A stretch of 64,000 bases of DNA, taken from positions 164 to 64,163 of the forward strand of contig JBAZYH010000004.1 of NCBI GenBank assembly GCA_041659365.1, given 5' to 3'. Under the pieces are notes generated by a model. That model was not told the origin of the DNA. It saw only the letters and a program-made list of their open reading frames with translations, and made no database searches. Origin of the DNA: Minisyncoccota bacterium. GTDB taxonomy: Bacteria; Patescibacteriota; Minisyncoccia; Phycocordibacterales; GWA1-40-21. Both the position numbers and the translations under genes were made by a program. Each line of letters opens with the position of its first letter. The stretch's first letter is position 1. Shown here in pieces: positions 4,513 to 21,258 of this stretch.

Positions 4513-6760
4513 TCATTAGTAGATTCTTTTTCTCGTCATTAATAGATGTCCATATTTCTTCTGTAAGAAATGGCATAAAAGGATGTAGGGAAGTAATAAT
4601 AATTCTAATAGTTTTTAATAGGAATTGTTTTCTAGATTCTATTTCCATTGACGCGGATTCTTGCGGACTAGACGCGGAAGATGCGGAATCTAATGCAAAT
4701 ATTTTTTTACTTTCCTCAAGTATTACATCAGCAAAATTCTTCCATGCGTATTGATATATTTTATCTCCAGCCATGTAGAACCTGTAGTCTTCCATATCTT
4801 TTGTTATATCGGATAGGAGAGATTCCCTTTCTTCTATAAGTTTTTTATCTACTTCAGAATATTTATCAAAATTTTCTGAATATTTTGTATCCTTTGTCGA
4901 TTCAAGGACAAATCTAGTAATATTCCAAACCTTATTTGCAAAGTTTTTATAACCTTTTATTTTATCTTCTGAAATGTTCATATCTGTGCCTGGAGTATTA
5001 CCAATAATAAGAGACATTCTTCCAGCATCAGTACCAAATTTTGCTGAAATATCTAATGGATCCATATTATTACCAAGAGATTTAGACATTTTTCTTCCTT
5101 TTGCATCCCTAATCATTCCATGAAAATAAACCGTTTCAAATGGAATTGTTCCAAGGTTGTATCCGGTCATCATTATCATTCTTGATACCCAGAAAGGTAA
5201 AATATCATAACCAGTTTCTAAAACATTTGTTGGGTGATAAAAACCAAGATCATTTGTTTTTTCTGGCCAACCTAAAGTTGAGAAAGTCCAAAGTGCAGAA
5301 GAAAACCAAGTATCCAAAGTATCTTCATCTTGTACCCACCCTTCACCTTTTGGATTTTCTATATCACAAAATGTTTCATTTCCTTTATAATAAACTGGAA
5401 TACGATGACCATACCAAATTTGTCTTGAAATACACCAATCTCTGAGATTATCTATCCAGTGAAAATAAACTTTTTCAAAGAAATCAGGAATCATCTTTAT
5501 TTGACCATTTTCTACAGATTTTTTCATTATTTCTTTTAGTGTGACAGTATCTCCAGACTCAATACCTTTTATTTCTGAGTGTTGTATTTTAAATGATTTG
5601 CTAACAGATATAAACCATTGAAGCTTTGGTAACGGTTCTATTATTCCGCCGGTCCTTTCTGCAGTTGAAATATTTTGTTTAACAGATTCTTCTTTTTCTA
5701 AAAGTCCTTCTGTTTTTAGCCATTCTACGATAATCTCTCGTGCTTCTGTTGTTTTCTTTCCTAAAATGTTTTCTCCACCAACTGTCATTTTTGCTACTTC
5801 ATTAATAACAATTTTATCTTTTGGAAGATTGTGTCTCTCAGCCATTTCCCAGTCGATTGTGCTATGTGCAGGAGTAACGCCTAGCGCACCAGTACCAAAT
5901 TCTTTATCTACTTCTTTATCCGCTATAATTTTAATATGAATAGAAACTCCACAAAAAATTGCGTCGTATTCTTTTCCTATATATTTTTGGTAACGTTCAT
6001 CTTCTGGATGCACAGCAACAGCAACATCACCAACTTTAGTTTCTGGTCTTGTTGTTGATATTGAAATAGGGAAGTCTTTTGAATATTTAAAGGTATAAAA
6101 TTTTGCATCTCTTTCCTCATAAACTATTTCGTCATCAGAAATAACAGTTTGGCCTTTCGGATCCCAATTAACAATCCTGTATCCTTTATAAATAAGTCCG
6201 TCATCATACATCTTTTTGAAAACTGTACGAACGGCAAGGTTTCTCTTTTCATCAAGAGTAAAAGCTTCACGAGACCAATCACAAGAAGCTCCCATAGTTT
6301 TTGTTTGGGAGATAATTGTATCGTGACTTTCTTTTGCAAATTCTTTAATCCTATGAACTAATTCTTCACGTCCCAAATCAAATCTAGATTTATTCTCATT
6401 CTTTTTTATTTCTTTCTCAACTTTTGATTGGGTAGCAATACCTGCATGATCTGTACCTGGAAGCCAAAGAGTTTTCTTACCACGCATTCTGTTATAACGA
6501 ATCATTACATCTTCAACTGTAAGGGTGAGTGCATGCCCCATATGAAGTTTGCCAGTTACGTTAGCTGGGGGCATCATTATTGAATATTTTTCTTTGTGTC
6601 TTTCTGGTAGATTATCAGGATTAAAATAACCAGATTCTTCCCATAGCTTATATATTCTAGGTTCAGTTTCTTGTGGGTTATATGGCTTTAAAAATTTGCT
6701 TGCCACGTTTGAATTTTCACTTTGTTCTTTATTTATCATATTTTTTTTGTTTAATTCCAT
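4487..6760 (-). CDS. valS: Valyl-tRNA synthetase (short form lacking the C-terminal coiled coil)
   Basis: PPANVTGKLHMGHALTLTVEDVMIRYNRMRGKKTLWLPGTDHAGIATQ (HIGH region) and KMSKSLGN. ValRS-type editing and anticodon domains. Confidence 0.85.
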   Translation of the reverse strand: MELNKKNMINKEQSENSNVASKFLKPYNPQETEPRIYKLWEESGYFNPDNLPERHKEKYSIMMPPANVTGKLHMGHALTLTVEDVMIRYNRMRGKKTLWLPGTDHAGIATQSKVEKEIKKNENKSRFDLGREELVHRIKEFAKESHDTIISQTKTMGASCDWSREAFTLDEKRNLAVRTVFKKMYDDGLIYKGYRIVNWDPKGQTVISDDEIVYEERDAKFYTFKYSKDFPISISTTRPETKVGDVAVAVHPEDERYQKYIGKEYDAIFCGVSIHIKIIADKEVDKEFGTGALGVTPAHSTIDWEMAERHNLPKDKIVINEVAKMTVGGENILGKKTTEAREIIVEWLKTEGLLEKEESVKQNISTAERTGGIIEPLPKLQWFISVSKSFKIQHSEIKGIESGDTVTLKEIMKKSVENGQIKMIPDFFEKVYFHWIDNLRDWCISRQIWYGHRIPVYYKGNETFCDIENPKGEGWVQDEDTLDTWFSSALWTFSTLGWPEKTNDLGFYHPTNVLETGYDILPFWVSRMIMMTGYNLGTIPFETVYFHGMIRDAKGRKMSKSLGNNMDPLDISAKFGTDAGRMSLIIGNTPGTDMNISEDKIKGYKNFANKVWNITRFVLESTKDTKYSENFDKYSEVDKKLIEERESLLSDITKDMEDYRFYMAGDKIYQYAWKNFADVILEESKKIFALDSASSASSPQESASMEIESRKQFLLKTIRIIITSLHPFMPFLTEEIWTSINDEKKNLLMIESWPIKS

Positions 6761-8968: not shown

Positions 8969-10261
8969 TTATAAACTCAAATTTCCATTGGCTTTAAAAT
9001 CTGTTTCTGGTTTTTTGCCAGATAAAATATTTAGATATCCCGCGACTGCTATCATAAAAGCATTGTCCGTAGAAGCACTAAATTCTGGAATCATAAGTTC
9101 AACATGAATATCTTCTGCGAGTTTTGCAAAATCACTTCTTATTTTTTTATTTGCACTTACACCACCACCGATTATTATAGTTTGTGCTCCGTATTGTTCA
9201 ACGGCTTGTTGGGTTTTTTTAATTATTACTTCTACTACAGCATCTTCAAATTCTCGAGCTATTTCTTGTTTGATAGAATCAGTTAATTTGGCTAAAACAT
9301 TTTTTTCAGAAAAATGTTCGCCCGACTCGTCTTTCTGTGAAGACGAGTTTAGGGTAATTTTTTGTACTGTATAAAGTACAGCAGTTTTTATTCCTGAGAA
9401 AGAAAAATTTAAATCATGAGAATGTATCATTGGACGAGGAAGAGGGAACGCGGATTTACGCGGACCAGACGCAGAATCATGCGGATGTTCAAGTCTATCC
9501 TTTTCTGCGAGTTTAGATATTTGTGGACCACCAGGATATGGTAGACCTAGTATTCTTGCAACCTTATCAAAAGCTTCTCCGATAGCATCATCTCTTGTGC
9601 TTCCAATTATTTCATATTTTTGGTTTTCTTTACTTAGGACAAGTTGGGTATGCCCACCGCTTATGAGGAGAGCAATGACGGGATAATTAGGGGATTGAAT
9701 GTTGAATGTTGGATGTTGAATATTAGTTTCTTTACATTCACTATTCAATATTCCACATTCTCGTTGTAGCATGGCTACAACGACATGTCCTTCCATGTGG
9801 TTTACAGGGATTATAGGGATGTTCCAGGCTTCTGATAATGCTTTTGCGAAGCATATACCAACCCAGAGTGCTGGTTCAAGCCCAGGGCCATTGGTGACCG
9901 CTATAGCATCTATGTCTGGTTTTTCTATTTTCTCAATGAGTTCAATTAAATCTTCAGATAGATCATTTTCTCTTGCTAGAATTTCTTTTATTCTTTCTTT
10001 TCTTGAATCTCGAATCATAAATCTTGAATCCTTTTTCATCCCGGCTTCCTCAAGACATTTTTCAAGTTGGGGAGTAAGGTTTAGAGCATGTTCCCTTTTT
10101 GCCATCATAGGATAAACACCACCATACTGTGCATGTATAGCTATTTGAGAATATAATTGGTTCCCAAGTATTTTTATTTTTGAACCAACAGAATCATTTT
10201 CTGTTTCAATAATACAAACCCCTGTTTCATCGCATGATGTTTCTATGCCTAAGATTTTCAT
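8969..10261 (-). CDS. tsaD: tRNA N6-adenosine threonylcarbamoyltransferase TsaD (Kae1/Gcp family) with lineage-specific insertions
   Basis: MKILGIETSCDETGVCII, HMEGHV, SGGHTQL, GEAFDKVARILGLPYPGGPQISKLAE, GGVSANKKIR. At 430 aa it is about 90 aa longer than typical, with inserted low-complexity segments. Confidence 0.9.
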   Translation of the reverse strand: MKILGIETSCDETGVCIIETENDSVGSKIKILGNQLYSQIAIHAQYGGVYPMMAKREHALNLTPQLEKCLEEAGMKKDSRFMIRDSRKERIKEILARENDLSEDLIELIEKIEKPDIDAIAVTNGPGLEPALWVGICFAKALSEAWNIPIIPVNHMEGHVVVAMLQRECGILNSECKETNIQHPTFNIQSPNYPVIALLISGGHTQLVLSKENQKYEIIGSTRDDAIGEAFDKVARILGLPYPGGPQISKLAEKDRLEHPHDSASGPRKSAFPLPRPMIHSHDLNFSFSGIKTAVLYTVQKITLNSSSQKDESGEHFSEKNVLAKLTDSIKQEIAREFEDAVVEVIIKKTQQAVEQYGAQTIIIGGGVSANKKIRSDFAKLAEDIHVELMIPEFSASTDNAFMIAVAGYLNILSGKKPETDFKANGNLSL

Positions 10262-10687: not shown

Positions 10688-11072
10688 CTGTCGTTTGAAT
10701 TTCAAAACTGCTGAACTAAAAATCCAGCAGTTTTTTTATATTAAATATTTTTACGGGGAAGTTCGACACTTACAGTGTCAGTACCTTCATTGGATATTTT
10801 TATTGGTATGCTTCGCATCTATAATAATGTGAGCCGCAATAATTTGTTCGTCGTCACTCACAAATTTTCCAGCCCCGGACTCAGCTTTTTTCCTACTGAA
10901 AAAATATGCTTCCGTCTTCACAAAAGCGAAAAAGACTGGAGAAGTCCAGTCTTTTTAAAATCCGCTTTTGTGAGCCTTCTCGAACTGTGACCTTGTGGTT
11001 CCTTACCCCATAATGTTATTTATAATGTTTTTAGTGTAACAGTTTAACCCTTCTCGTGAGACTATAAAATGG

Positions 11073-11390
11073 CTATTGTTTGTTTCCTATAATTATTTTG
11101 AAAGAGTCACTATCATCTTTGGGGTTTTCAATAATTTGACCGTTTATTGGCTGAGAATAAACAGCTTGATTAACTCCATTAACTTTATAGTTATTTCTAT
11201 CTAGATATTCTTTAATTTGGGATGCAAAATTATAAGCTTCACCATCACCTAATACAGAAGTTACATTAACAGAAGATCCAGTAGGAATTAATTGCTTGAG
11301 CTGTGTTTCTAGTGATGAATCTAATTTTCTTGGTTGGGGACCTAGATATACATTATTATTACCATTTATGTTGTTTTGATTGATATCCAT
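11073..11390 (-). CDS. Hypothetical N/Q-rich protein (105 aa). A 59-aa membrane-anchored ORF lies just upstream at 11400-11579 (-).
   Basis: ORF only. Confidence 0.3.
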   Translation of the reverse strand: MDINQNNINGNNNVYLGPQPRKLDSSLETQLKQLIPTGSSVNVTSVLGDGEAYNFASQIKEYLDRNNYKVNGVNQAVYSQPINGQIIENPKDDSDSFKIIIGNKQ

Positions 11391-11781
11391 ATATTTACTT
11401 TGTTAAGAATGCATAAATATAGTTAGCAACAATTGAAATTATAATTCCTATGATAAAACCTTCTCCGCGCATTTTCCAAGTAAACTTATTGTTTGTTTTT
11501 GTTTCATTACCTGAATCAGAAAGATGGGCGTTGTTCTCACCATTTGTATTATTTTGTTTTATATTTACAGACATAAATTTAAATATTACATATTTATAAT
11601 ACTTCTCGTGTTAGCACTTGTTGGTGACCCCTTTGTCCCTAGAATGGAACACCGTTCAAAGTGAAGTAAAACGATGGAATGAAGTATTTAATTTTTATAA
11701 AATAATTCCATCTTACTCAATATAAGCTTATAAATACGAATAATAAATAATATTTAATTACCGTTAAGGGTATAGAACACT

Positions 11782-12273
11782 ATGAATACTACATTTAAAC
11801 AATTAAATACTGAAACAGAAAAAATCAGCATTAAAGATTTTTTACTAAAACCATCAGCTTATTATCAAGTCGTTCCTAATCATTTTATAAAAATTGGTAG
11901 ACCAACATTTGATGGAAAAAATGAAAGTGAAGTAGTTGCGAAATTACAGTATGCCTTTTCTATAGGAGCAAAAGTCTCAGAAGCCTGTTGTTTTGCGGGT
12001 ATTTCAAAAGATTCATTCCATAGATATTGTAAAAGATATCCAGAGTTTCGCGACAAAATAGAGCTTTTACAAAACACACCAATTTTTATTTCTAGAGTTA
12101 TTATTTATAATGCAATATTAAATAATGATTTAAAAATATCCAAGTGGTATCTTGAAAAGAAATGTCCTGAAGAATTTTCTTACAATAGACCACTTATGAT
12201 TAAATTGAAACAAAAAGAAGAAAGAATAGAATATCTGGAAGGAATTTTAAAAAATAAGAAAATTTTGTTTTAA
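11782..12273 (+). CDS. HTH-domain protein (terminase small subunit-like or transposase-like HTH)
   Basis: AKVSEACCFAGISKDSFHRYCKRYPEF is a helix-turn-helix, similar to the TerS-like HTH of CDS 28182-28598. Confidence 0.45.
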   Translation: MNTTFKQLNTETEKISIKDFLLKPSAYYQVVPNHFIKIGRPTFDGKNESEVVAKLQYAFSIGAKVSEACCFAGISKDSFHRYCKRYPEFRDKIELLQNTPIFISRVIIYNAILNNDLKISKWYLEKKCPEEFSYNRPLMIKLKQKEERIEYLEGILKNKKILF

Positions 12274-12276
12274 TTA

Positions 12277-12771
12277 TTGGGATATAAAATTTGTGTTAAA
12301 ATTAGAATTATGAAAATAAAAGAAATTAAAAAAAGAATTAATAATGCATTAGATAGACTTTACGATGTTGATCAATTTATAATTGATAATGATCTCTGTG
12401 AAAGATGTATAAATTTTAGATTTGCTCTTCATTTGCAAAATAATTTTCCAGAATATTTTGTTGATTGTGAGTACAATAAATCTCATATTGGTTTAATTAA
12501 TGATCAAAAAAGAGTTTTGGATACAGGAAATGGTAACTTTATCGATATTATTATTGGAAAACGTTCTAGATCACCAAAAGATGATTTTATCTGTTTTGAA
12601 ACTAAAAAATCGAATAGTAATGATGTTTTAGGAATAGAGAACGATATTAATAAATTAAAAATATTAACAAGTGGTGGTCAATTTGATTATAAATATGGTT
12701 TTAAAATAGTTTTTTCATTATTAAGAAAAGATGTCATACTTGAAACTTATAAAAAAGCAAAGTTATTATAG
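12277..12771 (+). CDS. Putative PD-(D/E)xK-family nuclease
   Basis: FIDIIIG ...(17 aa)... ICFETKK fits the D...ExK spacing, with an upstream conserved E (ERCINF). Confidence 0.35.
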   Translation: MGYKICVKIRIMKIKEIKKRINNALDRLYDVDQFIIDNDLCERCINFRFALHLQNNFPEYFVDCEYNKSHIGLINDQKRVLDTGNGNFIDIIIGKRSRSPKDDFICFETKKSNSNDVLGIENDINKLKILTSGGQFDYKYGFKIVFSLLRKDVILETYKKAKLL

Positions 12772-12857
12772 AGTAATGGGCTATTTTGTGGACAATTACG
12801 GATTGCTTATAATAAAAAAATATCGTAATATGTAGATGTAAAGTTGTTGTTTTTAAA

Positions 12858-13997
12858 TTGTATTTTAAAATTACGAAAATGGCGTCCATAAATCTTATAG
12901 AAAAAATAACTAATCTTTTTGTAGAAGGTAAACATCAACAAATAATAGATGTTTTGAGTGAGGAATCTGTCAGATTAAAAAAAACTGGTAAAATGGTAGC
13001 CAGTAAAAAACTTCAAAACATTATTAAAAAAATACCTATTAATAAAAGTTCTTTTGTTGGAGCATCCTCTAATCATTCTGTAAAATCAATAGATATTTCA
13101 AATTATCGTGAAAATAATCTAGTAAAAAAATATTATTCTCAAGTTACACCAGAACAAGTGATTCTAAATATTTCTGCAAAAGATAAAATAGAAAATCTTT
13201 TTAAAGAATGGGAAGATTTTGATAGACTTTCTAAACATAATCTCTTCCCAACAAATAGAATTTTATTTTATGGTCCACCTGGTACAGGAAAAACTTTGTT
13301 AGCAAATGCAATTGCACAACACTTAGATTTTCCACTTGTTTTAGTTAGGTTGGATGAATTAATCTCTTCATTTTTAGGTGAAACTGGTAAAAATATTAGA
13401 GATATATTTGAAATTGCGTCAAAAGAACCCGTGGTGTTATTTTTAGATGAAATAGATACTATTGCTAAATTTAGATCTGATGAAAAAGAATTAGGTGAAT
13501 TAAAAAGAGTTGTTACAGTTTTGTTACAAAATATTGATTTTTTTCCAAATCAATCAATAATTATTGGCGCAACAAATCACGATGGTATTCTCGATAAAGC
13601 AATCTGGAGAAGATTTCCATTAAAATTGAAATTGGATTTACCCGATATTAATAGTAGAAAATTATTGTTTAAACTTTTTTTAAAAGGAACAGATCATAGT
13701 ATTGATTACGATTTAATAGCAAACATTACCGAAGGGTTAAACGGATCAGAGATTTTTGATATTGTTCAAAATGCAAAAAAACAATCAATACTTACAAACA
13801 GTAATAAGGTTACAAATATAATTATTGCCCAATCTTATCTAATAACATATAATATAGAAAAACCTCATATTGGATCGACTAAAAAAACAATATATGCTTT
13901 GTGTCAAAAACTCAAAGATTCTGGTTTAAAACTAAGAGAAATTGAAACTATATCTGGTATAGCATATACAACTCTTCGAGATAATTTAAAAAAATAA
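12858..13997 (+). CDS. AAA+ ATPase (classic AAA family), ietA-like
   Basis: Walker A ILFYGPPGTGKTLLANAIA, Walker B VLFLDEIDTI, second region of homology (IIGATNHDGILDKAIWRRF). Confidence 0.8.
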   Translation: MYFKITKMASINLIEKITNLFVEGKHQQIIDVLSEESVRLKKTGKMVASKKLQNIIKKIPINKSSFVGASSNHSVKSIDISNYRENNLVKKYYSQVTPEQVILNISAKDKIENLFKEWEDFDRLSKHNLFPTNRILFYGPPGTGKTLLANAIAQHLDFPLVLVRLDELISSFLGETGKNIRDIFEIASKEPVVLFLDEIDTIAKFRSDEKELGELKRVVTVLLQNIDFFPNQSIIIGATNHDGILDKAIWRRFPLKLKLDLPDINSRKLLFKLFLKGTDHSIDYDLIANITEGLNGSEIFDIVQNAKKQSILTNSNKVTNIIIAQSYLITYNIEKPHIGSTKKTIYALCQKLKDSGLKLREIETISGIAYTTLRDNLKK

Positions 13998-16354
13998 TGT
14001 ATACCTTACTTATTCCAAAAGAAAAAAGTAGACGGGAGAAAAAAACAGGTGGCGGACCATTCTGGAAAGCTTATTGGGAAAAAGAAGTTGAAAAAAATCC
14101 AACCTATTATGCTTCTCAGTACAGTAAGCGTATTTCAAATTTAGATTCTGCTATTGATGGTTTTAGAAATAAATATTCTAAAAAGGATAGGAGATATTAT
14201 GCTGAAATTAAATTAGACGAAAGAGTGTCGTCAAAATCTACTGAGCCAACGAAATTGTGGATAGAAGCAGGACTGACAGTTGTTGAAACCAAGGAGCGCA
14301 ATGGAGAAACTTTTTTTACGATAAGTGGATCACTCGAAGATTTTGCAAAATTTAAAAAAATTACAGGTTCTGCAACGTTCGATACTGCTCATAGTGGTAA
14401 AGGTAAGATTCAAGATATGTCTAGGCAGGTATTCGCTGTTACTGAAATCTATGATAAAAATGATTCAATTAATAACAGAATTTCTGTACATCTTAGAGAG
14501 TTGATAAAAGATAATTACTCTAAACAACTTGATTGTGTTATTACTATACATTATGAACGAAATATATCTGAATACGATATAATTTTTAATGAAATTGAGC
14601 AAAAAATTGGGGTTGGTAATCTTCATAAGAGAGACAAAGAATTTTTTATAAGTAATATGTCGTATCGTGCAAATGTTCATATCAAACAAATTATTGATTT
14701 ACTTACTGATTCAACGTACGGCTATATTGCCCGCATAAAAATAAATCCAGAATTTATTTTTCAAAGGTCTACTCCAAGTATAAATCTAACTTCAGTTCAA
14801 ATAGGTAAATTATTAACTGATGAAAAAGTTGTTTTTATTGATAGTGGAATAGATAATAAAGTAATAAATCCTTTTATTTCCCACTCAATGAATTTTTTGT
14901 CTGGTTCAGATATTCCTGACAAAAAACACGGCACAAGTGTGGCTAGTCGATTTTTATTTGGAAATAATTTTTTTGAAAAAGTATCAAAAGGAGAAAAAAT
15001 AGATCCAACTGCAAAAATTATTGATGTTCAGATTTTACATAAAGACCCTGATGGATCTTCATCTGTTGATCCTGATGTTTTAATGAAATCAATAAAAGAA
15101 TCAACAAATAAAATAGATGACGTCACTATATATAATTTATCAATTGCTTGTAAAGAGCCTATAAACGAACAAAATGATATTGATGATTCAACTGCTTTAA
15201 TCGATAGTATCTCGAGTAAAAAAGATATTCTCTTTATTACTGCAGTTGGAAATCAAAGTGGTAATTATACACTTGGTTACAAAGATATTTTTAAAGATGA
15301 ATCTTGTAATATATCATCACCTTCTGATGCAATAAATGCTCTTTCGGTTGGTTCTATATCTGAAATTGCTCATAAAGATACTTTGTGTGGCACTGTTGAT
15401 TACCCATCTCCTTTTACAAGAAAGGGTGGTTTTCGAAATGATATTAAAAAACCAGAACTTGTAGCGTATGGTGGTAACATCGAAAAAGATATAAATAATA
15501 AATATGATATAGCACATCTTATTACATCTACAAATAAATATGGCGTTGACATAATGAGCTTGGATGAATTTTCTAGAGATATTGGAACTAGTTTAAGTGC
15601 ACCATTAATTACAAGGAGTGCTACTCTAGTATTAGATTATTTAAAAAAATCAAATCTCTCACAACAAATTCCATTATTTAAATACAATAAAGCTAATCTA
15701 GTTAAGGCATTGCTGATACATTCAACCTCCAGAATTACTCAAGCAAAAATTAAAGACGATACTCTTAAAAGAGCGTATGGTTTTGGAAAAACAGATCATA
15801 TGTCAGCTCTGTTTGATGATACAGAGGATACAGTTACTATTACGTATGCTGATGCTATTAGTTTTTCAGAGAAAAAACAGAAAATTTTAATAAAACTGCC
15901 AGACTATCTTTTGGGTCAGAATATTGAGTTTGTCTTTACACTTGTTTATAATCCACCAGTTAATTCTAATTTTAAAGAATATAAAATGGTCAATCTTCAA
16001 GGTTCTGTTGGTCTTGTGTTTCCAAAAATGGAAAATGGAAAACCAAACGGAAAAATGGATGTAAAACCTTTAGCACCATCACATAGTTGGGATAATTATA
16101 AATCATCAGATTTTAATACAATTCACTATAAAAAAAATATTAAAAAATTAGATTATCTTGATTTACAAATTGGTATTCAAATGACAGTATCAAGTCAGCT
16201 TTTGAATGAAATACCAGAAGATAAAATTTTACAAAATTACGCAATCGTTCTTTCAATAAAAGATATGTCAAAAAAAGGTAAACTTAGAAGCCAGTTGCTT
16301 CTTAAAAATCAACTCGTTGAATTAATTGAAAATCAGGTAAAAATTACAATATAG
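13997..16354 (+). CDS. Subtilisin-like S8 serine peptidase with a long N-terminal domain, ietS-like
   Basis: Catalytic triad in D-H-S order: VVFIDSGID, HGTSVASR, GTSLSAPLITR. The start is adjacent to the ATPase stop. Confidence 0.8.
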   Translation: MYTLLIPKEKSRREKKTGGGPFWKAYWEKEVEKNPTYYASQYSKRISNLDSAIDGFRNKYSKKDRRYYAEIKLDERVSSKSTEPTKLWIEAGLTVVETKERNGETFFTISGSLEDFAKFKKITGSATFDTAHSGKGKIQDMSRQVFAVTEIYDKNDSINNRISVHLRELIKDNYSKQLDCVITIHYERNISEYDIIFNEIEQKIGVGNLHKRDKEFFISNMSYRANVHIKQIIDLLTDSTYGYIARIKINPEFIFQRSTPSINLTSVQIGKLLTDEKVVFIDSGIDNKVINPFISHSMNFLSGSDIPDKKHGTSVASRFLFGNNFFEKVSKGEKIDPTAKIIDVQILHKDPDGSSSVDPDVLMKSIKESTNKIDDVTIYNLSIACKEPINEQNDIDDSTALIDSISSKKDILFITAVGNQSGNYTLGYKDIFKDESCNISSPSDAINALSVGSISEIAHKDTLCGTVDYPSPFTRKGGFRNDIKKPELVAYGGNIEKDINNKYDIAHLITSTNKYGVDIMSLDEFSRDIGTSLSAPLITRSATLVLDYLKKSNLSQQIPLFKYNKANLVKALLIHSTSRITQAKIKDDTLKRAYGFGKTDHMSALFDDTEDTVTITYADAISFSEKKQKILIKLPDYLLGQNIEFVFTLVYNPPVNSNFKEYKMVNLQGSVGLVFPKMENGKPNGKMDVKPLAPSHSWDNYKSSDFNTIHYKKNIKKLDYLDLQIGIQMTVSSQLLNEIPEDKILQNYAIVLSIKDMSKKGKLRSQLLLKNQLVELIENQVKITI

Positions 16355-16624
16355 TGTTTGGTTTTCTGGGATTATTTTATATAAACCTTGCATTAAAAGT
16401 GTATATTGATATAATCAAATGACACAATTTAATAAGTAGAGACCTAACCCTTTTAAGATTTATTTTGAAAGGTATGGTCAAAAACGCACGATACAAAAAA
16501 CCCTCACATTAGGGCGTATCGTGCGTTGTATTGGGAAACTAATACAGAGGTTTAAAAACCTTCCTAGTGTGGGGCTTTTTCGTATCTACACACTAGACAT
16601 TATTAGTCTATTAACTTAAAAAAA

Positions 16625-17671
16625 ATGAAAGTGAAGCACGATATCACTCTCGGTGAATTAGGAGTAGTTTGTGGTTTAATTATTATTGTAATTTTTGCTA
16701 TTATTTATTGGTATATAGGAATACCTGCTTTAGTAATTTGGTATCTATTTAAAAAGAGAAAAAATAAATTTCCACTAAAAACAAATTTGATTATAGCTGG
16801 TGGCACTTTAGGTGTTGTATTTTCTGTCTTTTTCATAAATTTATATATTCATAGAACACCAAGTTTAACTATTTCTGAACCACAAGATTTAATAACTCTT
16901 CAGGTTGCAACCACTACGATTAAAGGGAAGGTTAGTCCGTCTTCAAGCAATTTAACTGTTAATGGTATAAGTATTAAGGCAAATTTCGGTGGACATTTCA
17001 TATATGAGGCTTCTTTAAAAAATGAAAATAATACCTATACTTTTATTGCAAATAATAAAGATAAAAGTCAAACACAAACACTAACAATTAAACGTATATT
17101 TACTGCAGATGAATTAGCTCAAATAGAACAAGCAAAAAAAGAGGCACTTGCTAAAGCGGAAAAAGATAAAGCAGATGAATTAAAAATAAGACTACAAAGA
17201 GAAATTGATAGTTTTAATAAGCCATTTGATAATAGTATTTATCGAAATGATATAACATCTCTTACTCTTGAAGTTATGTTATTTAGTGGTTGGGCAAAGT
17301 GGATTACAGAAGGAAAAGAATCTAATAATACAGAAGTTAAAAATTTAGCGAACCAATTAGAACAAAAGGTTTCCCAACGACAAATTAAAGAATTTCCTTT
17401 AATGAGAAAAACTTACGCTAAATTAATCGGAAATTTGTTATGGGAGCAAGATATATCAGTAGAAACACTTGGTGCTACAAATAAAACGATTCAACTTACA
17501 GGTGGAATTTTTGTGGCTAATAAAAGTAAATCAACGATTCAGGAACAATTATCTAAACAATTGAGGTTATTTAGATTTACAACAGCAAATTATAAGTGGT
17601 ATGAGTATGATGAAACATATACTTATTATGATATGGATAGTTACGTGGATAGTAAGGTAATTGAGTTATAA
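16625..17671 (+). CDS. Membrane-anchored protein with coiled coil (two N-terminal TM helices, lysine-rich coiled coil)
   Basis: TM helices at residues about 12-40 and 55-75. AKKEALAKAEKDKADELKIRLQREI coiled coil. Confidence 0.4.
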   Translation: MKVKHDITLGELGVVCGLIIIVIFAIIYWYIGIPALVIWYLFKKRKNKFPLKTNLIIAGGTLGVVFSVFFINLYIHRTPSLTISEPQDLITLQVATTTIKGKVSPSSSNLTVNGISIKANFGGHFIYEASLKNENNTYTFIANNKDKSQTQTLTIKRIFTADELAQIEQAKKEALAKAEKDKADELKIRLQREIDSFNKPFDNSIYRNDITSLTLEVMLFSGWAKWITEGKESNNTEVKNLANQLEQKVSQRQIKEFPLMRKTYAKLIGNLLWEQDISVETLGATNKTIQLTGGIFVANKSKSTIQEQLSKQLRLFRFTTANYKWYEYDETYTYYDMDSYVDSKVIEL

Positions 17672-17681
17672 AAAATAATTT

Positions 17682-18065
17682 ATGAATAATGTTATCTACA
17701 CTTATGGGCATAGTGCCCGTGCTTTTTCAGAGTTCTTAAAAGGGCTTAAAGAAAATAATATAGAAATATTAATAGATTGCAGAACTCACCCACATAGTCG
17801 CTTTTGCCCTTGGTTCAATCAAAAAGCCCTCTCAGAGGGTTTAAATAAGGAAAGTATCACTTATCTATTTAAAGGTAAAAACCTTGGTGGTATGGGGGAA
17901 AATATTGATTATGAAAAAACTATAGGCGAACTAGTAGAAATGGTTAAAAAGGGAAAGAAGGTTTGTGTTATGTGTAGTGAAAAAGATTATAGAAAATGTC
18001 ATAGATTTTTAATGCTCACTCCTTCATTTGAGACAATGGGTGTAAAAGTTGAACATATAGAGTAA
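17682..18065 (+). CDS. DUF488-family protein
   Basis: MNNVIYTYGHSARAFSEFLKGLKENNIEILIDCRTHPHSRFCPWFN matches the DUF488 N-terminal signature (IYTIGHS...LVDVR..P.SR). Confidence 0.6.
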   Translation: MNNVIYTYGHSARAFSEFLKGLKENNIEILIDCRTHPHSRFCPWFNQKALSEGLNKESITYLFKGKNLGGMGENIDYEKTIGELVEMVKKGKKVCVMCSEKDYRKCHRFLMLTPSFETMGVKVEHIE

Positions 18066-18075
18066 TATATATCTT

Positions 18076-18822
18076 ATGAAAGACAACTTCGTTAAAAAAT
18101 TACTTGAGCGATTAAGTCAAAAGCAAACCATTATAAAAAGAAATTATGGAGAAAATTTATATTTAGAAAATCGTAAAAAGTTAATATCTTTATTATTAAG
18201 TCACCCATATTATATTGAGGGAATTATTAAATTAAAAAATAGTATAAAAAATAGTAAAATTCCTGTTGGGGAAAGTAATGAAAAAGTATTTTTTTGGGAG
18301 CATTTCAATGATAATAATGTTCGTCTCATAAGAAAAAAGATTCAAAAATTAATATCAGAATTTAATTTTAATGTTTTATATATTAATGATATAGAACAAT
18401 TTACTTATGATTATATAATTTGTCCGTCTAGAATTGAAAAAATTTCAAAAGAGAATATACCCAGTTTGGTTATAGTTAATACAGACGAAGATAGAAAAAT
18501 TAATGCTCATTTATTTTCTTCAAATTCTCGATATATACAAATTTTTGACTGGACAACACTTAAAGATATACAAGAAAATTGGGATAAAATTAAAGAGGGT
18601 ATTTTAGAAAAATCTATAGAAATAGATGTGAGTGATGACCTTTCTAAACTTCTTTGGAAATTAAAATTAGAAGGAAAAAATATTAAAGAAATGACTTATG
18701 ACGTGAATACTAAATACAAATATTTGTTATCCAAAATAAAAGATAACCTCTTAGGCGAAGATAATACGAGGGTATATATACATCGCTATGAGACAAGGTT
18801 AAAAAAGTTAAAAGATTTTTAA
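18076..18822 (+). CDS. Hypothetical protein (248 aa)
   Basis: ORF only. Confidence 0.35.
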   Translation: MKDNFVKKLLERLSQKQTIIKRNYGENLYLENRKKLISLLLSHPYYIEGIIKLKNSIKNSKIPVGESNEKVFFWEHFNDNNVRLIRKKIQKLISEFNFNVLYINDIEQFTYDYIICPSRIEKISKENIPSLVIVNTDEDRKINAHLFSSNSRYIQIFDWTTLKDIQENWDKIKEGILEKSIEIDVSDDLSKLLWKLKLEGKNIKEMTYDVNTKYKYLLSKIKDNLLGEDNTRVYIHRYETRLKKLKDF

Positions 18823-19034
18823 AATATTACAGGTGACAATATCAACACCTGTAATATCGTAAAAAAGAATATTTTCCTAAGATATAAGAATGATATCTAA
18901 GGAAGATTTTAAAAAAGCTCTCGGAGAAAAGATTCATTCTATTTCAGAAGAAGATATAGAAAAACTGAGAATTGGAATGGATGAAATGGCGGAAATCCTT
19001 TTTGATATTTGGAATGATAAAATAATTAAATTAG

Positions 19035-20756
19035 ATGAAGGAAAAACAATTTCAACAACAAAAAATATGTAGTTTTGGAGTTGCTAGAGTTAGTTCTGAT
19101 AAACAAGCCCAAGAAGGTGAAAGTTTTGACGACCAAAGAGATGCGATTTCTCGCTTTGCTGAAAAGAAAGGTTGGGATAATGTTTGCACTTTTCAGTTTT
19201 CTCTTTCAGGTAGAACTGAGGTTGCCGAGCTTATTAAAAGAATAGTTGATTTTTTAGAGAAAACTCCACATAAAATAAAATACTGTATATTTAAAAAAAT
19301 TGACCGCATAACTAGAGCTGGAACTGATGGGTATTCTGAGATAAAAATAGCTCTCGAAAAATATGGTGTAGAAATAATTGATACTTACGAAATAATTCAA
19401 CCAGAAAGAAACACTCTGGAACATTTAGGTTTTGATTATGATTGGAGTCATTATTCTCCTACAGGGACAGCAATTTTAATGGAAGTTAATAGAGCCAAGG
19501 ATGAAACGCGGGATATTTTAACTAGGATGATTGGACAGGAAATAAGTCTTGTTCAACAAGGATATCGAGTCCGACAAGCTCCTGACGGTTTTAAAAATGA
19601 AACGATATATGTTAATGGTAAGAAAAAATGCATAATCGTTCCTAACTCACCAAGATGTGATTATTATCTAAAAATATTTGAATTGAGGGTTCAAGGAAAT
19701 CTCACTGATGAGGAAATTGTAAAACATATAAACGCTATCGGTTTTAAATCAAGACAAAAAATTATTTGGAATATTCACAGAAACCCTATCGGAAAAACTG
19801 AAGGGACGGCTTTAACAGTTAAGCAATTACAAAGAATTGTTCAACGTCCCGTTTATGCTGGTTTTAATTATGAAAAATGGACGCATTATAAGCTTATCAA
19901 GGGTCAATACGATGGAATTGTGTCAATTGATACTTTTAATAGAGCAAATCGTGGAAAAGTTTTTATTAAGGAAAATAATGATAAAAGTTATGAATTAATT
20001 CATAATTACTCAGCAATAAGACAATCTTCAAGAAACAAAAATAATCCATTATTTCCTTTTAAATGGGTATGCTGTGATAAATGTAAAAAACCATTTTTAG
20101 CAAGCTCTCCAAAAGGTAAATCTGGGGAGGGGTTTCCTGTATATCATTGTGGTGTAAAAAATAATTTATCTAGAAATCACAAATATTATGGTATACCAAA
20201 AGATGTTTTAGATTCAAATGTTGAAATCTTACTTAAATCTTTAGAGTTTAATGATGAATATCTAGATGTATTTGAAAAAGTTCTTATAAATAAATATAGA
20301 GAACGAGAAAAAGAAGTGGTTCAAGACTCATCAAATATAAATAGAAATATTTCTAATCTACAAAGTGAACAAGTAAATTTAATAAATCAATTAATTAATA
20401 TTGAGAGCAAGATTGCTCGTAAAAATATTGAAGAAAGGATTGAGAGACTAGAAATTGATATTAATAAAGCTCGTTCGCAGAGAGATGAAATGGAAATAAA
20501 AGAGCACGATATTAAATCTTATATTAGAAGTGCAAAATATTTAATGGAACACCCAAGAGAATTGCTTATAGAACCTGATGATTTTAATATTCAGAAAGCT
20601 TTAATGAACTTAGTTTTTGATACTATGCCGACCTACTCTGAAATAATCAATGGAACACCCAAATTAGCTTTAATTTTCAAGCTATCAGAACAATTTAAAA
20701 TAAACAAAAACCTATTGGTGACCTTACGGGGAATCGAACCCCGATTACAGCCTTGA
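19035..20756 (+). CDS. Large serine recombinase (integrase). Its 3' end overlaps tRNA-Glu.
   Basis: N-terminal resolvase catalytic domain (GVARVSSDKQAQEGESFDDQRDAI), recombinase domain, zinc ribbon (CDKCKKPF...YHCG), coiled coil. The last about 40 nt are the tRNA-Glu 3' part. Confidence 0.85.
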   Translation: MKEKQFQQQKICSFGVARVSSDKQAQEGESFDDQRDAISRFAEKKGWDNVCTFQFSLSGRTEVAELIKRIVDFLEKTPHKIKYCIFKKIDRITRAGTDGYSEIKIALEKYGVEIIDTYEIIQPERNTLEHLGFDYDWSHYSPTGTAILMEVNRAKDETRDILTRMIGQEISLVQQGYRVRQAPDGFKNETIYVNGKKKCIIVPNSPRCDYYLKIFELRVQGNLTDEEIVKHINAIGFKSRQKIIWNIHRNPIGKTEGTALTVKQLQRIVQRPVYAGFNYEKWTHYKLIKGQYDGIVSIDTFNRANRGKVFIKENNDKSYELIHNYSAIRQSSRNKNNPLFPFKWVCCDKCKKPFLASSPKGKSGEGFPVYHCGVKNNLSRNHKYYGIPKDVLDSNVEILLKSLEFNDEYLDVFEKVLINKYREREKEVVQDSSNINRNISNLQSEQVNLINQLINIESKIARKNIEERIERLEIDINKARSQRDEMEIKEHDIKSYIRSAKYLMEHPRELLIEPDDFNIQKALMNLVFDTMPTYSEIINGTPKLALIFKLSEQFKINKNLLVTLRGIEPRLQP

Positions 20757-20790
20757 AAAGGCCGTGTCCTAACCGTTAGACGATAAGGCC
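20716..20790 (-). tRNA. tRNA-Glu(UUC), CCA encoded
   Basis: Minus-strand read: ggcctta-tc-gtct-aacggtta-ggac. Anticodon stem cggcc/ggctg, loop ttTTCaa. T-arm cgggg-ttcgatt-ccccg. Acceptor 3' strand taaggtc, then acca. Confidence 0.85.
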
Positions 20791-20796
20791 AAACTA

Positions 20797-20970
20797 TTTA
20801 AATACCAAACAAATCAAACCCCGAATTTACCTTCTTACAGAAGCAGTATACCTGTTCTGTTTTTTATTTCACTATCGTTCATATAAAACTATCACAGGTT
20901 TTGAATTGCTCCATGTATTCGCAATTCAACCTCTCAAAGGCCCGTCTTCTAACCGTTAGACGATAAGGCC
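20797..20970 (-). pseudogene. Degenerate tandem pseudo-tRNA-Glu. The 5' 30 nt are about 90% identical, then an insertion of about 95 nt (hairpin), then a degenerate T-arm.
   Basis: + strand 20941-20970 cccgtcttctaaccgttagacgataaggcc against the tRNA cognate gccgtgtcctaaccgttagacgataaggcc. Downstream aattcggggtttgattt against aatcggggttcgattcc. Confidence 0.6.
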
Positions 20971-21086
20971 AATAATCTTTATTTTAGTATACGGTGTATT
21001 GTATAAAGTATAAAAAAATAAATTTCAAATACCGAAAAAATATAACATTTTTTTGTAAAAAAAGCAAAATAATGATAACCTTTATT

Positions 21087-21197: not shown

Positions 21198-21258
21198 CAC
21201 GAGATACATACTAAGAAACATCCTGGCTAGGATGTTTCTTAGTATGTATCTCGCGTAC
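21198..21258. terminator. Perfect inverted repeat of about 26 bp, a bidirectional terminator
   Basis: gcacgagatacatactaagaaacatcctggctaggatgtttcttagtatgtatctcgcg. Confidence 0.75.

Follow-up and report, generated by a model that had tools for sequence, protein, structure and literature searches.

A genomic island of a Minisyncoccota bacterium whose integration at tRNA-Glu very probably splits its own large serine integrase gene

Archaeal integrases of the SSV1 type are tyrosine recombinases with attP lying within int: integration into a tRNA gene partitions int and excision restores it, and the split deprives the protein of a large portion and leaves the integrated copy inactive. The enzyme of phiRSM1 is a small resolvase-type protein. 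Integration of serine recombinases into tRNA genes has been called rare, with phiRSM1 (into tRNA-Ser) and actinomycete integrative and conjugative elements of Mycobacterium (into tRNA-Leu) as cases (PMC3218068); no split of a recombinase gene was found reported for these. Integration-dependent immunity in mycobacteriophage BPs and its relatives places attP in the 3' part of the repressor gene, and the integrated and free repressors differ in their C-termini (PMC4557955). The model of the Listeria LI integrase assigns the zinc-ribbon-domain motif to positions 11-19 in attB and 16-24 in attP, a 5-bp offset (PMC3783163). The present analysis was applied to a stretch of 64,000 nucleotides from a Minisyncoccota bacterium (the window: assembly GCA_041659365.1, contig JBAZYH010000004.1, positions 164 to 64,163 of the forward strand), and its subject was a 9,094-bp island (window positions 11630-20723) integrated at the 3' end of a tRNA-Glu gene, together with the large serine recombinase (integrase) encoded at its right end. 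Very probably, this element has attP inside the integrase gene, and the integrase open reading frame (ORF) is split on integration. No description was found of a serine integrase that has its C-terminus exchanged on integration, and nothing direct was found in the literature on serine recombinases at tRNAs in the Candidate Phyla Radiation (CPR) or on attP inside a serine integrase gene.

The integrated form of the integrase gene (19035-20756, + strand) encoded 573 aa, and the protein displayed Resolvase PF00239 at residues 15-118 (E 3.8e-9), a Pfam match to Recombinase PF07508 (20.0 bits, slightly below the 21.1-bit cut-off), and similarity to the phrog_95 integrase (E 1.7e-28). The catalytic S20 and the zinc ribbon C347, C350, H371, C372, and H382 were invariant in an alignment of 26 integrase sequences, and the AlphaFold2 model of the homolog P0111 contained helices 398-446 and 450-477, as in the coiled coil of large serine recombinases; the predicted function is recombination of attP with attB. 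The integration target was an intact tRNA-Glu(UUC) gene (20716-20790, - strand) recognized by ARAGORN (ttc anticodon) and by Rfam (tRNA, 61.6 bits). The integrase ORF overlapped the 3' part of this tRNA by 41 nt on the opposite strand: codons 1-563 were native, the last 10 codons (LRGIEPRLQP) were tRNA-Glu antisense, and the stop codon was the TGA opposite the anticodon loop.

The two island ends shared the core TTGGTGACC, an exact repeat located at 11621-11629 (attL, + strand; B arm on its left and P' arm on its right) and 20715-20723 (attR, + strand; tRNA nt 69-76 antisense plus one flanking base). The identity of attL and attR comprised TTGGTGACC only, and past the core the ORF ran over 33 nt of tRNA that were chromosomal. 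The native last 31 codons of the integrase (beginning with PLSLEWNTVQSEVKRWNEVF) lay at the extreme left of the island (11630-11722). This displaced 3' end, composed of the 31 codons PLSLEWNTVQSEVKRWNEVFNFYKIIPSYSI plus stop (11630-11725, + strand), was identified in two ways: (i) a hidden Markov model (HMM) of the tail gave 52.8 bits at 11618-11701 on the + strand, and (ii) in-frame reading of 11621-11725 from the core gave LVTPLSLEWNTVQSEVKRWNEVFNFYKIIPSYSI followed by the stop, and 19035-20723 joined to 11630-11725 gave a 594-aa protein with the canonical WNT-type tail. About 18 of 120 homologous proteins carried this same conserved tail [..LV.....(L/F).WN(T/A)(I/L)E.T(V/I)..W(K/N)..F], and about 95 of the 120 had tRNA-antisense ends such as G[IVF]EP. 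The native tail is predicted to form an amphipathic helix with the motif L.WNT...V..W(N/K)..F; in the model of P0111, which is a full-length homolog (mean pLDDT, the predicted local distance difference test, 86), a disordered linker (552-559), being the stretch encoded by the attP core, was followed by a helix (560-576; pLDDT about 69).

The tail HMM was also applied to the genome loci of homologs (80 retrieved; loci are designated by L numbers), and a displaced tail was found in 20 of them in addition to the window, in each case 3.1-9.2 kb upstream of where the integrase gene starts and on the strand of that gene; opposite-strand matches were few, and all of them scored 5 bits or less. The tail block was kept in L001, L025, L005, L023, and L034. 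An uninterrupted ORF including the tail was present in the long contigs L018, L029, L039, and L051 and in the small tRNA-free contigs L081 (8.3 kb), L082 (8.7 kb), and L083 (6.5 kb), and the ends of L083 overlapped by 25 nt, fitting a circle. The two parts of the integrase gene thus lay at opposite ends in the window and the 20 loci and formed one ORF in these seven contigs, as in SSV1-type elements; because the tails are displaced in integrated loci and contiguous in free contigs, attP is placed within the integrase ORF and integration is taken to split the gene. The tail DNA of the window was 87% identical to that of L001, compared with 73% over the remaining shared island, and this conservation of tail coding at attL suggests that the elements still pass through a free form.

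The upstream tails might instead be relics of older, decayed integrase copies in tandem. Tandem integrations at one tRNA do occur, and the tail match of L028 (2097-2168) fell in an open frame of 552 aa that precedes the tRNA-linked integrase and may be a second full-length integrase in tandem; but the tail was present alone in the 20 loci and the window, it started at the core in the junctions read by eye, a stop or a terminator usually lay ahead of it (frame segments of 35-98 aa), and it kept its coding conservation (25-53 bits). No other integrase fragments were detected in the window by tblastn, and an origin of the tails from decayed copies is accordingly improbable.

The original prediction had proposed that attP supplies the 3' end of the tRNA (about 40 nt). 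In such classical tRNA-restoring integration, the original gene end would be displaced to the left end of the island and decay there; the 41-nt overlap of ORF and tRNA and the T-loop-like GAATGGAAC after the left core would agree with it, and L007, L038, and L032 shared 15-19 nt of the tRNA 3' end at the distal site. This proposal did not hold, and there is only a slight chance that it is right after all: the identity of the junctions ended after 9 bp, with no distal repeat of tens of nt of the tRNA 3' segment; the left block was an in-frame conserved coding tail, i.e., the integrase C-terminus encoded at the other island end, common to elements with integrases only 39-79% identical and contiguous with the ORF in free forms; and the longer tRNA fragments of L007 and L038 lay about 170 nt outside the true tail junction. 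These extra exact copies of the tRNA-Glu 3' end (15-16 nt; in the regions 2470-2645 of L007 and 4756-4928 of L038) may be the scar of earlier events at the same tRNA. The tail junction of L007 had its core broken by a 4-nt insertion, and the spacer of L038 held a copy (4768-4854, 33 bits) of the structured RNA described below. A crossover in the T-loop, suggested by L007, L032, and L038, was considered and dropped after the tail junctions were aligned; long tRNA direct repeats, sought in the island and 50 loci, were mostly chance 8-12-mers.

The core covered about tRNA positions 69-76 and was 9 bp long in the window and as short as GTGA in some relatives. Alignment of the family junctions gave the attL consensus TTT-GTGA-GCCCATTGT.CCT.GAATGGAACAC (motif part GAATGGAAC) and the attR consensus CAATTG-GTGA-CCCTAC.GGGAATCGAACC (also written with GGGAATCGAAC). 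The implied attP, CAATTGG-TGAG-CCCATTG, was an imperfect dyad with GA as its centre, and the central dinucleotide is probably G20720-A20721 (equivalent to G11626-A11627), corresponding to tRNA positions 71-72 in the acceptor stem. The predicted attP junction was AAACAAAAACCTATTGGTGACCCCTTTGTCCCTAGAATGGAAC, containing AACCTATTGGTGACCCCTTTGTCCCTAGAATGGAAC, and the predicted attB junction was GTGTTAGCACTTGTTGGTGACCTTACGGGGAATCGAAC, containing GCACTTGTTGGTGACCTTACGGGGAATCGAAC. Taking GA as the centre, (i) GAATCGAAC, the T-loop antisense at 20731-20739, occupied positions 11-19 of the B' half-site, and (ii) GAATGGAAC, located at 11642-11650 in the Glu-Trp-Asn codons of the tail, occupied positions 16-24 of the P' half-site. 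A distal motif GAAT(G/C)GAAC with the 5-bp shift between attP and attB described for the LI integrase was thus found, on one half-site pair only; serine integrases distinguish attB from attP through this offset.

The sequence comparison was also applied to island-free relatives. In L126, L117, and L133, tRNA-Ser, the structured RNA, tRNA-Glu, and tsaD were present without integrase; in the metagenome contig L126, the counterparts of tRNA-Ser (92% identical to the window) and of the RNA plus tRNA-Glu (93%) were followed directly by that of 10978-10803 (84%) and then by tsaD. L090 carried ATGCTTCTCGTGCTAGCACTAAATGGTGACCTTACGGGG, which equals the reconstructed attB without interruption (window 11598-11629 joined to 20724 onwards), and the chromosomal flank 11596-11620 was identical at 18 of 20 positions to the 3' flank of the unoccupied tRNA-Glu of L090. 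Homology of the window with the island of L001, whose integrase was 79% identical, began exactly at 11621 and extended to 20792, the middle cargo being different. G+C content was 0.23-0.30 across 11-19 kb compared with 0.33-0.38 in the flanks. The original prediction had described a 573-aa serine recombinase ending inside tRNA-Glu, an island integrated there by this enzyme, and a left boundary weakly marked by a 9-10-nt core at about 11619: Pfam, ARAGORN, and Rfam agreed on the first, the empty tRNA-Ser/tRNA-Glu/tsaD neighbourhood of L126, L117, L133, and L090 bore out the second, the exact repeat of TTGGTGACC and the start of L001 homology confirmed the third, as a 9-bp core at about 11621, and its coordinates were right to within a few bases.

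It might still be held that no mobile element is present, the overlap of ORF and tRNA being a chance run-on and the 9-mer repeat a coincidence. ORFs antisense to tRNAs are common artefacts, and TTGGTGACC had three copies in the window (0.19 expected), the third one, at 9891 inside tsaD, being a chance occurrence. Against this stand the ORF end inside a convergent tRNA in 53 of 68 loci, the empty sites in relatives, the sharing of both ends with L001, the displaced tail, the drop in G+C, and the defence cargo, and a chance origin is hardly credible.

The integrase had 493 homologs, mostly from CPR bacteria (Paceibacterota, Saccharibacteria, Gracilibacteria, and others). The C-terminal LVTL(R/P)G(I/V)EP(R/G)F.P was conserved in an alignment of 26 homologs (43-79% identity), and this LVTLRGIEP-type end was the antisense translation of the tRNA acceptor strand plus T-arm. 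The overlap was counted in those 68 of the 80 loci with the stop codon of the homolog on the contig, and the targets of the 53 convergent cases were 35 Glu, 5 Lys, 4 His, 2 Arg, 2 Val, and single Gly, Ser, Tyr, Leu, and Asp tRNAs, with tRNA-Glu typically overlapped by 39-41 nt; an end-of-tRNA core was also found for tRNA-Lys (L009), tRNA-Gly (L034), and a tRNA-like target (L012). Because the related islands spanned only about 4.8-10.7 kb and a single integrase homolog was found among the 2.9 million viral contigs of IMG/VR, they are regarded as small integrative islands and not as recognisable phages. Many contigs (L011, L021, L026, L027, L035, L059, and others) stopped within about 100 nt beyond the junction of integrase and tRNA, suggesting that assembly is often interrupted there, owing to populations polymorphic for the island or to repetition of tRNA sequence.

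The degenerate tRNA-Glu copy noted by the original prediction was indeed present at 20796-20972 (- strand; core 20820-20910), with a 37-nt copy of the tRNA-Glu 5' part (20936-20972; 33/37 identical), then a hairpin insertion, and a T-arm-like stretch at about 20800-20830; its reading as a disrupted original gene or a duplicate linked to integration did not stand. As an integration by-product, i.e., a disrupted target or the scar of an earlier element, it would explain why it duplicates the tRNA 5' half and adjoins the target tRNA, and L003 displayed the same arrangement beside its integrase; but the sequence was present at 85-93% identity in the island-free L090, L117, L126, and L133, its core occurred in 50 integrase-free loci with covariation, and the island crossover lay on the opposite side of the tRNA gene, at its 3' end, leaving the by-product origin very unlikely. 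Readings as an intron-containing tRNA, as tRNA-Gln/Ser, or as a two-piece tRNA together with the left block were rejected on inspection, no acceptor 3' strand or anticodon stem being formable.

The sequence proved to be a chromosomal, structured RNA of about 90-170 nt outside the island, composed in order of a P1 hairpin, CCUGUGAUAG, an AU stem with a GAG..CGAA internal motif, AACAGAACAGG, and a CUGUAAG-loop hairpin. In L003 this structure likewise lay next to tRNA-Glu, and two of its hairpins displayed compensatory changes. Metagenome contigs were scanned for CCTGTGATAGTTTT-N10-40-AACAGAACAGGT, in which both flanking motifs are invariant by construction; the scan retrieved the 50 loci (among L084-L133), none of them with an integrase. 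On contigs carrying a tRNA gene, the RNA was usually within about 100-200 nt of that gene and in the same orientation; 17 loci, including the window and L003, had the layout tRNA-Glu 5' half, RNA, partial T-arm, and intact tRNA-Glu, and other copies were free-standing, in some cases in tandem, and had terminators and a closing stem resembling an acceptor stem. Across 41 sequences, standard pairs occupied 95.7% of pair cells (84% when shuffled and about 45% when slid), and both-side changes occurred in 108 pair cells compared with 34 in shuffles; covariance model R1 scored the window copy at 93.1 bits, and its fold had z = -2.69. Rfam 15, searched at a permissive E-value with the window region and 14 loci, held no family for this RNA, and no copy was found in the viral collection. 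Conservation and structure thus extended beyond the residual tRNA similarity of a decaying pseudogene, and because of the integrase-free loci, the covariation, the covariance-model score, and the lack of an Rfam match, the sequence is regarded as a conserved structured RNA and as a candidate new class linked to tRNA genes. In L100, a group I intron (RF00028, 89.8 bits) occupied 445-723, about 130 nt upstream of the RNA copy.

Several points weigh against the model of an element at the tRNA-Glu 3' end with attP inside its integrase gene. About 640 bases (10979-11620) are extra compared with L126 and unaccounted for by the element. The exact-protein look-up of the integrase in the assembly index gave no record. 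Neither the coding P arm nor the B arm, which is the 3' flank of the tRNA, carried the 9-bp motif, and because it is missing in these two other half-sites, the symmetry of the att sites is weak and the half-site model is suggestive, not proven. The contigs L018, L029, L039, and L051, binned as Verrucomicrobiia, Alphaproteobacteria, Saprospiraceae, and Gemmatimonadaceae, carried their intact, tail-bearing integrases outside CPR-binned sequence; these are either integrated at another kind of site or mis-binned. The current mobility of this element is deduced from sequence comparison. The model is nevertheless very probably right, the element having defined boundaries, an empty site in relatives, a split ORF, and the same organization across its family.

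The 10979-11620 region contained two small ORFs on the - strand that were absent from L126, encoding 105 aa (11073-11390) and a membrane-like peptide of about 58 aa (about 11400-11575); at its place, L126 had a terminator and a tRNA-like RNA with the acceptor-like stem GTGACCTTA/TAAGGTCAC. The overlapping stretch 10968-11070 (+ strand) was 73% homologous to the integrase-gene end junction of L015, whose integrase terminated (LVSLLVIEPTG) in a sequence that resembles a tRNA without being one; the window copy started with TTTTGTGA|GCC, resembling an unoccupied target, and had no significant fold (z 0.44). A tRNA-Glu-like fragment at 10973-11040 (+ strand; top local score 18) was rejected, being homologous to this L015 junction and without a stable fold. 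On the other side, an inverted repeat (21200-21253) with perfectly matching 25-nt arms and a loop of 4 nt directly followed tRNA-Ser(CGA), and is probably a bidirectional terminator between tRNA-Ser and an ABC-transporter operon.

The island cargo, all on the + strand, was predicted to serve anti-phage defence through IetAS, the PD-Lambda-3-like gene, and DUF488, and consisted of (i) the first island gene (11782-12273), encoding a 163-aa terminase-small-subunit-like (helix-turn-helix) protein (phrog_4102, E 4.9e-12) and conserved in L001; (ii) a candidate defence gene encoding a PD-Lambda-3_A-like protein (12277-12771; PADLOC PDLC03986, E 3.3e-16); (iii) the adjacent IetAS pair, with the AAA ATPase IetA (12858-13997; PADLOC E 5e-95, Pfam AAA) and the S8 subtilase IetS (13997-16354; PADLOC E 1e-64, Pfam Peptidase_S8) overlapping by one base at 13997; and (iv) three ORFs at 16625-18822, encoding a membrane protein (348 aa, Glucodextran_B-like domain), a DUF488 protein (17682-18065; PDC-M45B-like in PADLOC, conserved in L001), and a 248-aa uncharacterised protein (conserved in L001). 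The LOOT RNA motif RF03000 (16441-16562, + strand; 83.8 bits, with a gathering score of 46.4) sat between IetS and the 348-aa membrane-protein gene; the main text of its source paper holds no discussion of the motif, and 8797-8967 of L038 was weakly similar to this region in opposite orientation.

In the proposed mechanism, strand exchange would take place within the shared core TTGGTGACC, with attP inside the 3' end of the recombinase gene. Integration would cut the ORF after codon 563, so that the attR side reads tRNA antisense and the native tail is stranded 9.1 kb away at attL, and excision would restore the 594-aa protein. Since the core is identical in both partners, the tRNA sequence would be unchanged by integration. 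The B' half-site would comprise the acceptor 3' strand plus T-arm, with the universal T-loop antisense GAATCGAAC read as the distal motif; such reading of a universal tRNA feature would explain why the targets of relatives include Glu, Lys, His, Arg, Val, Gly, and other tRNAs.

Compared to the phage-type large serine integrases (phiC31, Bxb1, and Listeria A118/LI), the present enzyme shared the resolvase plus recombinase domains, the Cys/His zinc ribbon, the long coiled-coil helices, and a short core (9 bp); with the LI model it further shared a 9-bp distal motif, placed at 16-24 in the half-site of the element and at 11-19 in that of the host (PMC3783163). It differed in its CPR/Patescibacteria hosts, in islands of 5-11 kb, and in having only one IMG/VR homolog. 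Like phiRSM1 and the mycobacterial elements, it is a serine recombinase using the 3' end of a tRNA gene, but its family spans at least 10 tRNA species. The location of attP within the integrase ORF and the partition of the gene at a tRNA were shared with SSV1-type elements; here, however, the enzyme was a serine recombinase, and only the last 31 of 594 residues were swapped, leaving the catalytic and DNA-binding domains intact. In BPs-type systems it is a repressor that is split, by a tyrosine integrase, whereas here the serine integrase itself was split.

The tail swap may have a functional effect. That the C-terminal exchange acts as a built-in sensor of integration state, with the 594-aa free and 573-aa integrated forms differing in activity, stability, or directionality, is a tentative idea and rather unlikely; if it is true, the tail may be needed for the synapsis of attP with attB, or its loss may permit or block recombination of attL with attR, giving a switch without a separate directionality factor.

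The supposed tRNA pseudogene becomes a candidate structured RNA class linked to tRNA genes, and the small carriers of IetAS defence genes gain exact boundaries in organisms with a poorly known mobilome. The split ORF accounts for a widespread annotation oddity, the LVTLRGIEPRF-type ends on hundreds of database recombinases. These enzymes form a large CPR family of serine integrases targeting tRNA 3' ends, with predicted att sites, and are compact integrases with a universally conserved tRNA feature as the host half-site; if the universal T-loop is indeed the distal binding motif, it would ease target switching between tRNAs, and engineering use may be possible.

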